The notes under the pieces were generated by a model. That model searched no databases, was not told the DNA's origin, and saw only the letters and a list, made by a program, of their open reading frames with translations. 64,000 nt of DNA from Thermoplasmata archaeon (GTDB taxonomy: Archaea > Thermoplasmatota > Thermoplasmata > Lutacidiplasmatales > UBA184), in assembly GCA_021796385.1 (NCBI GenBank), contig JAJYXQ010000043.1, positions 2,202 to 66,201 of the forward strand, read 5' to 3'. Positions 12,704-63,466 of this stretch are shown one piece after another. Both the position numbers and the translations under genes were made by a program. Position 1 is the first letter of the stretch; each line of letters starts with the position of its first letter.

Positions 12704-13150
12704 ATGAGCCCATTGGCGTGGTTCCCCCGCGGCCGCTGGCCCTCCCCGTGCGCCGGGTGCGGGAAGAAGATCCCCTCCTCCTCCCGCCGGACCCACGACC
12801 CGGCCACGAACAAGTTCTACCACCCCGCGTGCGCACCTGAGCCCGACCCCGACAACGGCGCAGCCGGCCAGTCGGGACCAGGGAAGAGTTCACTCGAAGC
12901 GCAAAGCAAGGCGGGGAACCTCCCCGGCTTCGTGAGCGGCGACAAGCTGAAGCCGGGCCCGCCCCGCGTGGCAATCTACGCGCGGGTCTCCACCAAGAAG
13001 CAGGAGACGGAGAACCAGGTGGTCTGGCTGCGCGACTACACCGCCCAGATGGGTCGGGCCGTGGCGGAGGTCCTGAGGGAGCTGGGGCTCCCGAAGACGG
13101 CGCTGTCGGCGGTGCAGAGAGCCGTTACGACGAGGCAGGAATTGAGGTGA
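12704..13150 (+). CDS. zinc-ribbon protein carrying a serine-recombinase N-terminal catalytic motif; likely recombinase remnant or fusion
   Basis: N-terminal CAGCGKK...HPAC; then RVAIYARVSTKKQETENQVVWLRDYTAQMGRAVAEV matches the resolvase motif aiYaRVSt..Q....Q...l..ya...g..v..v and then diverges; there is no resolvase core or HTH. GC falls from ~65 % to ~45 % at ~13150-13160. Confidence 0.45.
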   Translation: MSPLAWFPRGRWPSPCAGCGKKIPSSSRRTHDPATNKFYHPACAPEPDPDNGAAGQSGPGKSSLEAQSKAGNLPGFVSGDKLKPGPPRVAIYARVSTKKQETENQVVWLRDYTAQMGRAVAEVLRELGLPKTALSAVQRAVTTRQELR

Positions 13151-13767
13151 TGCGGGTGATGGAGGAACTCAACAACATTCAGTTTCCGAGAATTGATGAC
13201 TACTTCTACCCTAGCGGAAGTTTGGCGGAGGGTTGGAAGTTCAAATCGCAGAAAGCGAGAGCAGCCTGGATTCTCTTCAGGCTCTATTTGAACGGCACCA
13301 TTACTCAATGGAATCGCATGGCCGAGAATGCGGACTCTTCCCGTAAGGATATGGGAAACCTACAGGTGTGGTGCAGAAACCAGATTGACTTGCATTTCTA
13401 TCTTATCTGCTGGGACAAGATGCATAAGTATCTCAAAGTCTTTGTTAACGAACAGGATGACAGCGAGATTCTCAGGATATATTCTCGAATTAAGCGCCTG
13501 CTCGAAATGGGAAAACTAGCTCGAGACCATCTTGAGCACCTGGACAAACGAATCGATAGACCCACTACGGGATTCCATTATCTCGGTATTGGATCGGATG
13601 GGATGCTCACGCTGGCGTACAGAGATGTACCCAACAAGGGCGGAATAATCGAGAGGGATGTTGCGTTAGGCAAGGATGAAGTGGAGCAAGTGATGGCAAC
13701 GTTCAAAAATATCATGGATGTCTTGGAGGGTTCGACTCGAAGTAATCCGCGCCAAAACGATTTGTAG
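13147..13767 (+). CDS. hypothetical protein (low-GC insert); possible HEPN-like motif
   Basis: 206-aa ORF with protein-like composition and a downstream T5 tract; contains LARDHLEHLDKR (an Rx4H-like motif); no confident family. Confidence 0.5.
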   Translation: MMRVMEELNNIQFPRIDDYFYPSGSLAEGWKFKSQKARAAWILFRLYLNGTITQWNRMAENADSSRKDMGNLQVWCRNQIDLHFYLICWDKMHKYLKVFVNEQDDSEILRIYSRIKRLLEMGKLARDHLEHLDKRIDRPTTGFHYLGIGSDGMLTLAYRDVPNKGGIIERDVALGKDEVEQVMATFKNIMDVLEGSTRSNPRQNDL

Positions 13768-13790: not shown

Positions 13791-13845
13791 TTTTTAGCCC
13801 TACCTAAAGGGGACATTTAGGGATAGGGGAGTCTTCTAAAGACTC
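13791..13845. terminator. T5 tract plus a 7-bp hairpin (GAGTCTT-cta-AAGACTC) between convergent genes
   Basis: TTTTT at 13791-13795; a perfect inverted repeat at 13829-13845; lies between the stop of 13147..13767 and the 3' end of the HEPN gene. Confidence 0.25.
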
Positions 13846-14315
13846 TATGCGCAAAGCGACTGAATCTTGTCAATGAGTTCAAGGGCGCCGTTGTAGTAAT
13901 CTTTGAGACGACCATAGGAGATGCCTACATCGGAACCGTGCGATATGCTGTTCCGATTATTGACAATGCTGTTGACAGCCTCCTTCACGCGGTCATCCAA
14001 GCAATTCAGTTCTGCCTGCCATTTTGGGCTAAATGCTCCCGCAAGTTCAAGTATCTTCTGCATGTTTGGATTTTGAAAGTACTCCAGTTGGCTGCCAACG
14101 TAATTCGATACCGTGGGGGCGGCCTTGTTGGAGGCGTAGCCAGCGTAGATCGTGCGTAATGAGGTTTCGAGAAAACCAGAAATCAGGATGCAAAGGTAAC
14201 GTGTCCAATGGGACTGCATCTCAGGGTCGTCGGTGATCCGTATCTTCTCGAATAGGCGATCGATTCGCTGTTGTCGCCGCTTAATCTCGAAGTCATAGTA
14301 TCCCAGATTGGTCAT
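13845..14315 (-). CDS. HEPN-domain protein (Rx4HG motif), partner of the DUF262 protein
   Basis: A C-terminal NNRNSISHG gives the R-x4-H-G HEPN catalytic signature; alpha-helical; 156 aa; overlaps the upstream DUF262 gene by 4 nt. Confidence 0.6.
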   Translation of the reverse strand: MTNLGYYDFEIKRRQQRIDRLFEKIRITDDPEMQSHWTRYLCILISGFLETSLRTIYAGYASNKAAPTVSNYVGSQLEYFQNPNMQKILELAGAFSPKWQAELNCLDDRVKEAVNSIVNNRNSISHGSDVGISYGRLKDYYNGALELIDKIQSLCA

Positions 14316-15385
14316 GGTACATTCATGAAAGCATCGACTGCGAGCTTCATGCGCGCAGCGAGCTGAGCCTCTCTTGCCGTTGCCTTTCCAGATGCTTGGA
14401 TAAAGTCCGGATTCAAGAGAAGACTGTCATATGCCTGTGAGAGGGAGGTAGGGTTAGAGAGGGGGCCCCTCTTGAGCCTCTCAGCTACCCCCACCATGAC
14501 CGAATCAAAGACAGCCGCGTTCAACACCCCTTGCGGACGGAAGGCCCTCACTCCAATCGTGTCGTGAATGGTATGGATGGTCTTCGAAAACGTCGAGGTG
14601 AGTTCGTCCGCAGATTGCAGCACAAGACGCCGGTTTTTGGACATGTACCGGTTAAGGAACTTCTTCATGGGGCTTTCGTATTTCGTGCGATAATAGAACA
14701 TGGACAGGAACCGGAGAAGGAGTTCTTGGTCTCGCATTCTAGAACTCGTGTCACCGTATATCGCGCGCCAATCTTTGTTCCGATTCAGTTCCTTTAACAA
14801 TTCCTTGAATTCTCCATGGTAAATGGCGCTTCGAATCTCTTGGGATTGGAGATCGGTTCCGCCGGTGTTAAGTCGCTCGAAAATGAGGAAGGTACTGCTG
14901 TTCTCGTCTTCGGGCTCGTCCTGCCTAACGATTGTCGCATGGAGGATTGAATCGTCTAGCCTCCTTCGAGCTTCATCGGGGAGGGTTTTGTACGTCATGT
15001 CCTTGAATCGGCTTACGACCCCTCTTAGCTCAAACGCCTTCTTAGAAGGTTCAAAGACTCCATCGAAGAAGAACTGAAGAGTGCGCAATCGTTGGTTTCC
15101 GTCAATTACTAGGAGTTTCTGGGTCGATTCTTCCTTTGAAAGGAAGATGCCGGGGACCGGCAATCCCAAGAGGAGAGATTCGATGAACCTGCATGCTTGG
15201 CTGTAGGTCCAGACGTACCCTCTTTGGAAATCTGGCAGGGAGATGTCTCCGGCTTTGAGACGCTTGACAAGGCTGTCGACGGTGTAGTCGGCACCATAAG
15301 CCGTTATCGAGTAGTCGAACAGTATTTCTTCCTCGAACTCATCGCCTAAGCTGTCAACGATTTCGGTGTCGACCATCAAACCCAC
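14312..15385 (-). CDS. DUF262 (ParB/Srx-like, DGQQR motif) domain protein
   Basis: PDFQRGYVWT...ESLLLGLPVPGIFL...LLVIDGNQRLRTL (a DGQQR variant) and FERLNTGGTDLQSQEIRSAIY; 357 aa with a C-terminal helical region; ~47 % GC. Confidence 0.75.
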   Translation of the reverse strand: MGLMVDTEIVDSLGDEFEEEILFDYSITAYGADYTVDSLVKRLKAGDISLPDFQRGYVWTYSQACRFIESLLLGLPVPGIFLSKEESTQKLLVIDGNQRLRTLQFFFDGVFEPSKKAFELRGVVSRFKDMTYKTLPDEARRRLDDSILHATIVRQDEPEDENSSTFLIFERLNTGGTDLQSQEIRSAIYHGEFKELLKELNRNKDWRAIYGDTSSRMRDQELLLRFLSMFYYRTKYESPMKKFLNRYMSKNRRLVLQSADELTSTFSKTIHTIHDTIGVRAFRPQGVLNAAVFDSVMVGVAERLKRGPLSNPTSLSQAYDSLLLNPDFIQASGKATAREAQLAARMKLAVDAFMNVP

Positions 15386-15738: not shown

Positions 15739-16197
15739 TCAGCTTCGCGAATGTGGGGGGTATCGATACTTCCGGTCTCCCCCCCCCAACATATCAAAGC
15801 CACTTTTCACAGAATGGCAAGACCGGCAAAGGGTCCAGAGGTTCCACATTTCGTTAATGTTGCCAAGCTGCAGCTCGATAAGATGGTCCACCTCGAAGAG
15901 ACCCTTGGTGTCCCCGCATGCTTGGCACCTGTGTTGATCTCGTTCGAGGATCGATTCTCGCCAGCGATAGGCCCTTTTGGCGAGTTGGTGCTTCGACTCG
16001 GGTCCCTTGGTAACTCCTGAACGTGTCACACGCCAGGAGTGAGGTGTGCCAAGGGCAAGATGTCCTTCGACCCGCATGCACTCGGCCGAAATGATAGCGG
16101 ACGGGCGTTCGTAGTACTTCTCCATGATGCAGTCATACCTTGCTATGCATTTTGGGTAAGCCTTCAAGTCCGCAGTGAATGCGTCGTTCTTTTCCAT
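15739..16197 (-). CDS. HNH endonuclease
   Basis: RDQHRCQACGDTKGLFEVDHLIELQLGNINEMWNLWTLCRSCH is the HNH (H-N-H plus CxxC zinc) signature; 152 aa; its C-terminal tail runs through a C9 homopolymer. Confidence 0.7.
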   Translation of the reverse strand: MEKNDAFTADLKAYPKCIARYDCIMEKYYERPSAIISAECMRVEGHLALGTPHSWRVTRSGVTKGPESKHQLAKRAYRWRESILERDQHRCQACGDTKGLFEVDHLIELQLGNINEMWNLWTLCRSCHSVKSGFDMLGGGDRKYRYPPHSRS

Positions 16198-63393: not shown

Positions 63394-63466
63394 GCCGCCA
63401 TAGCTCAGTTGGCAGAGCAGCTGATTTGTAATCAGCAGGTCGAGAGTTCAAACCTCTCTGGCGGCT
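63394..63466 (+). tRNA. tRNA-Thr (anticodon UGU)
   Basis: Cloverleaf folded by hand: acceptor GCCGCCA/TGGCGGC; D-stem GCTC/GAGC; anticodon stem GCTGA/TCAGC with loop TTTGTAA; T-arm GAGAG-TTCAAAC-CTCTC; discriminator T; no encoded CCA. Confidence 0.85.

Follow-up and report, generated by a model that had tools for sequence, protein, structure and literature searches.

PD-T4-2, a two-gene system of Escherichia coli ECOR65 entered as 'DUF262, HEPN' in Table S1 of Vassallo et al. (2022), is a validated anti-T4 system (PMC9519451). It protects against T4 both natively and in K-12, and deletion of PD-T4-2 in ECOR65 restores T4 plaquing (PMC9519451). The H127A substitution in PD-T4-2B was one of four mutants, and the four mutated systems were reported to lose protection (PMC9519451). 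Even so, a 2025 paper still called PD-T4-2 largely uncharacterised (PMC12065111). The operon had been recorded as 'Ribo L-PSP-HEPN in operon with ParB' in the HEPN superfamily survey of Anantharaman et al. (2013) (PMC3710099), and DUF262 is known as the NTPase and DNA sensor of GmrSD, BrxU, and SspE (PMC12065111). An earlier note on the DNA analysed here had presented its DUF262 and HEPN genes as what looks like an uncharacterised two-component defence system, a description that does not hold, the operon having been catalogued in 2013 and validated as PD-T4-2 in 2022. Sequence comparison places the pair as a distant, divergent relative of the PD-T4-2 type, and it adds a member to a type of system that was already known. 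We assign a probability of about 0.8 to the reading that the pair forms a self-contained two-gene antiviral module of PD-T4-2 type, horizontally acquired into a variable defence hotspot with a type I R-M operon as its neighbour.

The window, the whole 64,000-nucleotide stretch of archaeal DNA that was analysed, carries the two genes on its minus strand. Gene A (14312-15385) encodes a DUF262/ParB-like NTPase domain followed by a C-terminal helical (ParBDB-like) domain, without a nuclease domain, and gene B (13845-14315) encodes a stand-alone 156-aa HEPN protein of the RiboL-PSP family, a predicted RNase effector. The start codon of B and the stop codon of A share an ATGA at 14312-14315, which can be read directly in the sequence; this 4-nt overlap had been noticed before and suggests translational coupling. 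The product of A has 357 residues when read from the GTG at 15385 and 354 when read from the ATG at 15376, the start used in public gene calls on identical contigs. The ATG is more probably the true start.

The three DUF262 motifs of A are conserved among 35 relatives. In motif I, FQRGYVW (QRxxxW, 15209-15229, minus strand), Gln51, Arg52, and Trp56 are invariant, as are Phe166, Glu167, Arg168, Leu169, and Asn170 in motif III, FERLN (FxxxN, 14867-14881, minus strand), which is followed by TGG. Motif II, IDGNQR (DGxQR, 15089-15106, minus strand), has invariant Asp92, Gly93, Gln95, and Arg96, and the DGxQR sequence is the predicted NTP-binding and hydrolysis centre of DUF262 (PMC12065111). The heading of the earlier note gave this motif as DGQQR; the protein itself reads DGNQR, and DGQQR is the form of most relatives (56 of 65 paired relatives). 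In B, the HEPN catalytic motif Arg121-Asn-Ser-Ile-Ser-His126-Gly127 (Rx4HG, 13935-13955, minus strand) is read from the sequence within NNRNSISHG. Among 16 relatives of B, Gly127 is invariant and Arg121 and His126 are conserved in at least 90%; Rx4H is found in 60 of 65 harvested partner proteins, and the remaining ones have the conservative variant KNxIAHG. Every motif that had been quoted for the two proteins could be located. Both ORFs are intact and every catalytic residue is present. The DUF262 and HEPN pair is real, and its motifs are not a product of chance.

Profile searches and structure prediction agree with these motifs, and the Pfam scores lie far over the curated cutoffs. A matches Pfam DUF262/GmrSD_N (E = 1e-28), as the previous domain call had it, and its predicted structure combines an alpha/beta domain at the N-terminus with a C-terminal half made of helices. 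A contains an N-terminal DUF262 NTPase domain with DGxQR, and the DUF1524 His-Me nuclease domain is absent from it. Since A is without DUF1524, the comparison with GmrSD that had been drawn is only partly apt: the DUF262 domain is shared and the nuclease domain is missing. The best Pfam family of B is PF18735 RiboL-PSP (6e-17; 62.6 bits against a cutoff of 28.4). A HEPN-family match had been expected, with MAE_28990 as an example; the HEPN match was obtained, and MAE_28990 came up as a secondary, sub-threshold match. The predicted structure of B is all-helical, and B shows both the Rx4-6H motif and the alpha-helical HEPN fold that define the HEPN superfamily, the reverse of the missing HEPN match and non-helical prediction that had been named as grounds for rejecting the reading. 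When the B profile was searched against PDB sequences, no meaningful match came up.

We located the genuine PD-T4-2 through exact matches to the lambda-red primers of Vassallo et al. A of the window is 33% identical to PD-T4-2A (L102:5001-6095) over 340 aa in BLASTP (E = 8e-47). The B proteins are much further apart. Pairwise BLASTP of window B against PD-T4-2B and against the B protein of an IncX1 plasmid gave nothing significant, and the PADLOC PD-T4-2_B model (PDLC04028) did not match window B even at E <= 10. Given these failures, the relation between the two B proteins rests on common Pfam membership, a deeper profile, and a bridging sequence. Both pass the PF18735 cutoff, genuine PD-T4-2B with 31.4 bits (cutoff, 28.4). 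A shallow profile comparison was weak (21% probability), while hhalign of a 68-sequence window-B profile against the PD-T4-2B family reached 85.7% probability over 127 columns with the catalytic motifs aligned (E = 5.4e-6, an E-value from a very small target set). His126 of window B aligns with His127 of PD-T4-2B in every profile alignment. The B protein of E. coli pLR-27_3, which is 27% identical to window B in BLASTP (E = 2e-13), bridges the subfamilies, scoring 2.5e-25 on the window-family HMM and 2.6e-6 on the PD-T4-2B-family HMM, again with very small target sets. The PADLOC PD-T4-2_B model appears narrow: it matches two of 16 close relatives of window B, with 4.6e-5 at best, and fails on all 10 of the more distant partners, and the pairs of E. 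coli plasmids it also misses or barely matches. Since window B is too divergent for this model, annotation rules that require both the A and B models probably miss the locus.

The pairing of the two genes extends far beyond the window. Alignment-based scans of metagenome and viral contigs gave 73 independent loci with an A homolog, and in 68 of them (93%) the next gene downstream belongs to the B family, which answers the objection, anticipated in the earlier note, that the genes might not be neighbours in other genomes. The spacing is -3, the same 4-nt overlap as in the window, in 41 of the 68 paired loci, and most others have 0 to +10 nt. Five proteins with DUF262 and ParBDB domains, each of 396 aa, are solo. 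No other recurring neighbour of the paired loci was found, the gene upstream of A in the window included. Over 64 pairs, identity to window A correlates with identity to window B (r = 0.79; medians, 53% for A and 42% for B). This correlated divergence, together with the ATGA overlap, suggests that A and B are made together and act as a complex. The family is large: a word-indexed search gave more than 6,500 A homologs, B forms about 2,000 clusters at 50% identity, and A retains 55-65% identity between members of many bacterial phyla. Nearly all of the relatives that carry an organism name are bacterial. The contexts of the pair are unrelated to one another: it occurs on a Trueperaceae chromosome beside a transposase, on IncX1 and 3.9-kb plasmids of E. 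coli, on a Kocuria plasmid, on viral contigs, and in a P4-like satellite in E. coli; proteins identical to those of the window are present on 21 contigs from several samples.

In the window, the hsdR/S/M genes of a type I R-M operon adjoin the pair, as do other genes of defence type. The GC content is 50.6% in the module, about 8 points under the mean of the whole window (58.5%), 49.9% in the segment 13151-16250, and 61-66% in the adjacent hsdM region. The contrast of about 47% with about 65% reported before is thus real in direction and overstated in size, both values being local extremes. Since homology with a related archaeal locus stops at about 13081, where the GC content drops, the proposal of a low-GC insert is supported; the related locus carries different defence cargo. 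The site of the module is a variable, lower-GC defence hotspot in an archaeal genome. Around the low-GC segment, the search for terminal direct or inverted repeats returned only short matches at chance level. Rfam gave nothing near the module and only a tRNA-Thr at 63394 in the window, and no ATPase gene was found in the segment and no NTase domain in the neighbours of the pair. Downstream of B lies a convergent orphan ORF of 206 aa (13147-13767) with the string RDHLEH. It was considered as a second HEPN protein of the family and rejected, as it gave no HMM or hhalign signal and is not conserved beside other pairs.

Two alternatives assign the genes to other known systems. An HNH gene (15739-16197; Pfam HNH PF01844, 2.7e-8) lies just upstream, on the same strand and 350 nt from the pair, and A structurally resembles the N-terminal part of BrxU and SspE; GmrSD, moreover, consisted of two proteins in its first description. 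These points would suit a split GmrSD-like type IV restriction system, in which A and the HNH endonuclease cut modified DNA and the HEPN protein is an accessory. We regard it as very unlikely. The HNH protein belongs to the PF01844 family and not to DUF1524, and the gene is absent from the other paired loci outside copies of the same genome, the sole exception being an unrelated 317-aa HNH protein 2.6 kb downstream in one locus (L007). The partner of A in 68 of 73 loci is the HEPN gene, not an HNH gene, and the genuine PD-T4-2 works as a two-gene clone in which no HNH gene is present (PMC9519451). The other proposal, a degenerate Menshen (NsnABC) system of which an NsnA-like gene is the sole survivor beside an unrelated HEPN gene, starts from PADLOC, where A scores best on NsnA (3.8e-69, full length), ahead of PD-T4-2_A (2.6e-57, profile positions 45-361 of 363). 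However, NsnA also outscores PD-T4-2_A on the DUF262-HEPN pairs of E. coli plasmids and is thus a generic model of DUF262 plus ParBDB proteins. Neither an NsnB (ABC-ATPase) nor an NsnC (inPIN-effector) gene lies nearby, whereas the HEPN partner is kept in 93% of the loci, and we consider a Menshen remnant hardly credible.

The remaining alternatives accept the pair as a unit and differ on what it does. It may be mainly a toxin-antitoxin or addiction module, with B as the RNase toxin and A as the antitoxin, that stabilises its carrier mobile element. This is unlikely in our view, since the E. coli homolog protects measurably against T4, natively and in K-12, and since A, an NTPase of 354 aa that also has a DNA-binding domain and whose catalytic motifs are invariant, goes far beyond what a simple antitoxin needs. 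The gene for the large protein comes first and A is 55-65% conserved between phyla, and both features point instead to an enzymatic sensor. The toxin-antitoxin and defence readings are compatible, as an abortive-infection system can resemble a toxin-antitoxin module. Alternatively, the pair could be intact and silent, a passenger recently acquired from bacteria that is unexpressed or non-functional in its archaeal host. The low GC content, the bacterial origin of nearly all named relatives, and the bacterial style of the ATGA coupling would all fit. On the other hand, both ORFs have kept all catalytic residues, identical proteins recur on contigs from several samples, and the other cargo of the hotspot is also defence-related, so that we hold a silent passenger to be quite unlikely.

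For the antiviral module of PD-T4-2 type, we propose a working model. A would be the sensor and switch, its ParB-like NTPase and helical DNA-binding domain binding invading, possibly modified, DNA, and the binding or hydrolysis of NTP by A would cause a conformational change. B would be the effector: its dimerisation would create a composite Rx4H RNase site, and, on release or activation by A, it would cut RNA (tRNA, rRNA, or mRNA). Cutting of RNA would then stop the virus from replicating, and the infected cell might be lost in the process. Since no mechanism has been published for PD-T4-2, the model is drawn by analogy; we infer the division into sensor and effector, the RNA target, the trigger, complex formation, and activity in this host. 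Nothing in the archaeal host obviously corresponds to the validated trigger of PD-T4-2, a T-even phage with hypermodified DNA. The Asn in place of Gln in motif II is unusual and was counted against the explanation.

PD-T4-2, validated yet mechanistically unexplained, falls within a much larger family, which reaches many bacterial phyla, plasmids, viral contigs, and one archaeal genome. The failure of the B model on this subfamily leaves a gap in annotation, and its loci are likely unannotated or called orphan NsnA-like genes. A wider claim is possible and is put forward tentatively: a large cross-domain DUF262-HEPN subfamily, missed by current models because the B model is too narrow, may respond to a trigger other than hypermodified T-even DNA and act as an antiviral module in archaea as well as bacteria. 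Because A and B are tightly coupled, the NTPase and HEPN motifs invariant, and the conservation of A unusually high, the subfamily is a good substrate for studying how a ParB-like NTPase controls a HEPN RNase.

Comparison with described systems places the pair closest to PD-T4-2. GmrSD, BrxU, and SspE each consist of one polypeptide, about 560-800 aa long, that ends in a DUF1524 His-Me DNA nuclease, whereas the pair has no DUF1524 and encodes an RNase-type HEPN protein separately. With HepT-MNT, ApeA, DARNA/PD-T7-3, and Csm6, B shares the HEPN fold, the Rx4H site, and a probably dimer-dependent RNase activity; DARNA and ApeA cleave tRNA upon activation. The regulator differs from those of stand-alone HEPN proteins, being a DUF262 NTPase and not an MNT antitoxin, a fused sensor domain, or a cyclic-oligoadenylate sensor, and no minimal nucleotidyltransferase of the HEPN-MNT type is adjacent, the partner being the DUF262 protein. 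A has the architecture of NsnA of Menshen (NsnABC; Millman et al. 2022; Gao et al. 2025), a ParB-DUF262 domain with a helical ParBDB-like C-terminus, and the proposed logic of a DUF262 sensor and an RNase effector is similar. Unlike Menshen, the pair is without the NsnB ABC-ATPase and the NsnC inPIN-effector, and its effector, a small HEPN protein, is encoded separately and directly coupled to A. [quoted passage not shown] From PD-T4-2 itself, the pair differs in the 4-nt overlap of its genes (a 4-nt gap in E. coli), in the DGNQR of motif II, in its strongly divergent B, and in its archaeal host and type I R-M neighbour, compared with an enterobacterial host and a P4-like satellite. Both consist of two co-directional genes: the first encodes the DUF262 protein (354 and 364 aa), the second a stand-alone HEPN protein (156 and 167 aa). 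Their A proteins are homologous over the full length and carry no nuclease domain, the catalytic His occupies a near-identical position (His126 and His127), and both systems lie within mobile or defence regions, in hotspots of variable content.

Both ORFs described in the earlier note were recovered on the minus strand of the window. Gene A, which encodes the DUF262 (ParB-like NTPase) protein, runs from 15385 to 14312 and yields 357 aa from a GTG, or 354 aa from the ATG at 15376, the start used by the gene calls on identical public contigs. Gene B, which encodes the HEPN protein of 156 aa, runs from 14315 to 13845. Since the sequence reads GTACCATGACC, the ATG of gene B and the TGA of gene A share the four bases 14312‒14315, and the proposed 4-nt overlap is present. 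The quoted motifs were also located by reading the sequence: FQRGYVW (15209‒15229), IDGNQR (15089‒15106), and the FERLN region (14867‒14881) in gene A, and NNRNSISHG, containing R121-x4-H126-G127, in gene B (13935‒13955). The motif announced as DGQQR actually reads DGNQR. The lower-GC segment exists, but the contrast is smaller than the 47% against 65% first put forward: GC is 50.6% in the module and 49.9% in the segment 13151‒16250, compared with 58.5% in the window and 61‒66% in the adjacent hsdM gene. The 77-nt gap between gene B and a convergent gene (13768‒13844) can fold into two small hairpins, GAGTCTT...AAGACTC and CCTAAA...TTTAGG, and its folding energy is modestly better than that of shuffled sequence (z = −1.9).

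Protein A matches Pfam GmrSD_N/DUF262 over residues 39‒189 (E = 1e-28), in agreement with the DUF262 call of the earlier note. Among the PADLOC models, it matches NsnA of the Menshen system (3.8e-69) and PD-T4-2_A (2.6e-57), each over nearly the whole model length, and the N-terminus of BrxU is its only PDB sequence-profile match below E = 1e-3. The AlphaFold2 model (pLDDT 82.9) consists of an alpha/beta N-terminal domain and a helical C-terminal half, and neither DUF1524 nor another nuclease domain was found in the protein. The three DUF262 motifs are invariant across 35 relatives. A word-indexed search returned more than 6,500 relatives with lengths near 357 aa; many are 55‒65% identical and derive from MAGs with the labels Nitrospiraceae, Cyanophyceae/Microcoleus, Acidobacteria, Zixibacteria, Poribacteria, and Anaerolineae.

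Protein B matches Pfam HEPN_RiboL-PSP (PF18735) over residues 12‒154 (6.2e-17; 62.6 bits against a cutoff of 28.4), so that the expected HEPN match was obtained with PF18735 as the best family; MAE_28990, the family that had been expected, appears with the ApeA-type HEPN families only as a sub-threshold secondary match. The predicted structure (pLDDT 93.9) contains seven helices and no other secondary structure, as anticipated. Among 16 relatives, G127 never varies, and R121 and H126 are each conserved at 90% or more. The Rx4H motif occurs in 60 of the 65 harvested partner proteins, and the other five carry KNxIAHG. While the word-indexed search returned 16 B relatives, an exhaustive HMMER search gave 1,967 representative clusters at E ≤ 1e-3, nearly all of them stand-alone proteins of 150‒160 aa; the lower count is thus an artefact of the word index.

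The pairing was assessed in 80 metagenomic and 10 viral loci fetched with the A alignment, plus a few found by exact look-up, by running HMMs of the A and B alignments over every ORF. Among the independent loci, 73 extend 470 nt or more past the A gene, and in 68 of these (93%) a B-family ORF follows the A homolog directly. The spacing is −3 (an ATGA-type overlap) in 41 of these paired loci and 0 to +10 nt in most others. The five loci without a HEPN partner (L017, L029, L051, L058, and L085) form a subclade of solo DUF262 proteins whose longest ORFs are 396‒398 aa; their neighbours look like housekeeping genes, and L058 and L085 adjoin the same conserved convergent gene of about 285 aa. An all-against-all comparison of flanking ORFs in the fetched loci revealed no other recurrent neighbour; nothing clustered except antisense shadow ORFs within A and B and one neighbour that only the solo subclade has. 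Across 64 pairs, identity to window A correlates with identity to window B (r = 0.79), and B diverges faster (median identity 42%, against 53% for A). The HEPN match, the helical model, and the conserved adjacency answer in its favour both objections that the earlier note had raised against itself. Its observation is confirmed. On plasmids, the 3.9-kb pLR-27_3 of E. coli (NZ_AP027509.1) carries a DUF262-HEPN pair, a VbhA-family antitoxin gene, and little else, and IncX1 plasmids from both E. coli and Salmonella, such as p94EC-4, have the pair immediately behind the gene for the replication initiator.

The module follows closely on a type I R-M operon comprising hsdR (5209‒8019), hsdS (8016‒9257), and hsdM (11141‒12700). 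Between hsdS and hsdM, two extra genes (9260‒11141, plus strand) encode a protein of 505 aa, whose N-terminus matches PIN_3 weakly, and a 130-aa ASCH protein that matches the PADLOC candidate PDC-M11B (6.5e-45). In the related archaeal MAG GCA_021851265.1, hsdR, hsdS, and hsdM are contiguous without the PIN_3-like and ASCH genes, and after the operon come an intact 219-aa resolvase-like gene and then cargo unlike that of the window: an Eco57I-like methyltransferase, a HincII-like endonuclease, and a HEPN_AbiV protein. Nucleotide identity between the two loci is 79% in hsdR, 84% in hsdM, and 71% in the 5′ part of the resolvase-like gene. The homology ends at about 13081, where GC falls, which supports the proposed low-GC insert and the idea that the lower-GC segment may be exchangeable cargo in a defence hotspot; no terminal repeats bounding the segment were found. 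The 148-aa protein encoded at 12704‒13150 (plus strand) combines a Zn-ribbon-like N-terminus with no more than the initial ~40 residues of a serine-recombinase domain (VAIYARVSTKKQ). Over 126 residues it shares 62% identity with the intact resolvase-like protein, and the two part exactly where GC breaks; it has the look of a recombinase cut short by cargo exchange. Upstream of the operon, the sequence 2095‒2262 matches positions 799‒883 and 10871‒11000 of the related locus with 74‒84% identity, which hints at a small repeated element tied to the island.

Within the lower-GC segment, an orphan ORF of 206 aa (13147‒13767, plus strand) converges with gene B and contains an Rx4H-like string in LARDHLEHLDKR. 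It has no significant match in Pfam (best E = 0.05, below cutoff), PADLOC, or NCBIfam, and it was rejected as a HEPN relative, being related to neither HEPN subfamily and absent beside other pairs. About 350 nt upstream of gene A and on the same strand, a gene at 15739‒16197 encodes a 152-aa HNH endonuclease (Pfam HNH, 2.7e-8, with a partial NCBIfam match to the IscB HNH region), which is not conserved with the pair elsewhere. A 435-aa protein (17275‒18582, minus strand) has tyrosine-recombinase-like sequence features and no Pfam match at E ≤ 0.1; it may serve as integrase for the element or island bearing the defence genes. Three tandem KaiC/RecA-like ATPase genes (19406‒21568, plus strand), two with DUF7504 similarity, adjoin the island, and a further KaiC-family gene lies beyond it (49191‒50777, plus strand). 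Since the window also encodes Orc1/Cdc6 (61969‒63351, minus strand; adjacent to tRNA-Thr at 63394‒63468), aconitase X, and a split GMP synthase, and since a 'Nitrososphaerota archaeon' MAG belongs to the 90%-identity cluster of its hsdM, the window appears to be archaeal.

The defence role suggested for the pair is judged probable, and its domains were correctly named. In GmrSD, BrxU, and SspE, the DUF262 NTPase detects features of DNA and permits the nuclease attached to it to act; by this analogy, A is most likely a sensor and switch, and by comparison with the HEPN effectors DARNA, ApeA, HepT, and Csm6, the most likely role for B is that of an RNase effector working as a dimer. A would gate B within a stoichiometric A-B complex, an arrangement favoured by the overlapping ATGA, by adjacency in 93% of loci, by the correlation in how A and B diverge, and by the invariant catalytic residues in both. 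In view of the plasmid locations of DUF262-HEPN pairs, a toxin-antitoxin-like reading is also compatible with the data. As for known systems, the window locus is not Menshen, since it has no genes for the ABC-ATPase NsnB or the inPIN-effector NsnC, and it is not a GmrSD-type enzyme, since DUF1524 is absent.

The earlier note took the pair for an uncharacterised kind of system, but its architecture is already known: Table 1 of Anantharaman et al. (2013) has the entry 'Ribo L-PSP-HEPN ... operon with ParB' (PMC3710099), and Vassallo et al. (2022) isolated PD-T4-2, entered as 'DUF262, HEPN', from E. coli ECOR65 and assigned A to PF03235 and B to PF18735 (97.8%) by HHpred (PMC9519451). In that study, deletion of PD-T4-2 from ECOR65 restored T4 plaquing, mutation of key conserved residues abolished protection in four cases, and the plasmid list holds exactly four point mutants, among them the PD-T4-2B H127A mutant (PMC9519451). 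Reviews and a 2025 analysis still call PD-T4-2 mechanistically uncharacterised. Genuine PD-T4-2 was sought with the 50-nt homology arms of the lambda-red deletion primers of Vassallo et al. The forward arm, at the start of the A gene, matches exactly in 17 of 5,426 complete E. coli genomes, and strain 2009C-3133 contains both arms with zero mismatches. The arms bound a 364-aa DUF262 gene and a 167-aa HEPN gene (chromosome 3553868‒3555503) between psu and the integrase of a P4-like satellite, in the variable hotspot of this satellite, which is integrated next to ssrA.

Window A is 33% identical to PD-T4-2A over 340 residues (BLASTP, E = 8e-47), and window B gave no BLASTP alignment with PD-T4-2B, which itself scores above the PF18735 cutoff (31.4 bits). 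A profile of 31 PD-T4-2B relatives reached 21% probability against the 16-sequence window B profile; with a 68-sequence profile, hhalign gave 85.7% over 127 co-linear columns (E = 5.4e-6, for a tiny target set and to be read with bit scores) and placed RNxxxH on R122...H127 of PD-T4-2B. By sequence, the B protein of pLR-27_3 is a bridge between the two subfamilies: it is 27% identical to window B (BLASTP, E = 2e-13) and scores 2.5e-25 with the HMM of the window family and 2.6e-6 with that of the PD-T4-2B family, E-values that likewise refer to tiny target sets and are to be read with bit scores. The PADLOC PD-T4-2_B model recognizes neither window B nor most of its relatives, and it misses or barely detects the B proteins of the E. 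coli plasmids (pLR-27_3 and IncX1). Automated calling that needs both subunits would probably miss the window locus. The window pair adds a new and rather divergent member to the known PD-T4-2 / DUF262-RiboL-PSP-HEPN kind; its host, apparently archaeal, is an unusual one, and the B subunit of the pair escapes current annotation models.
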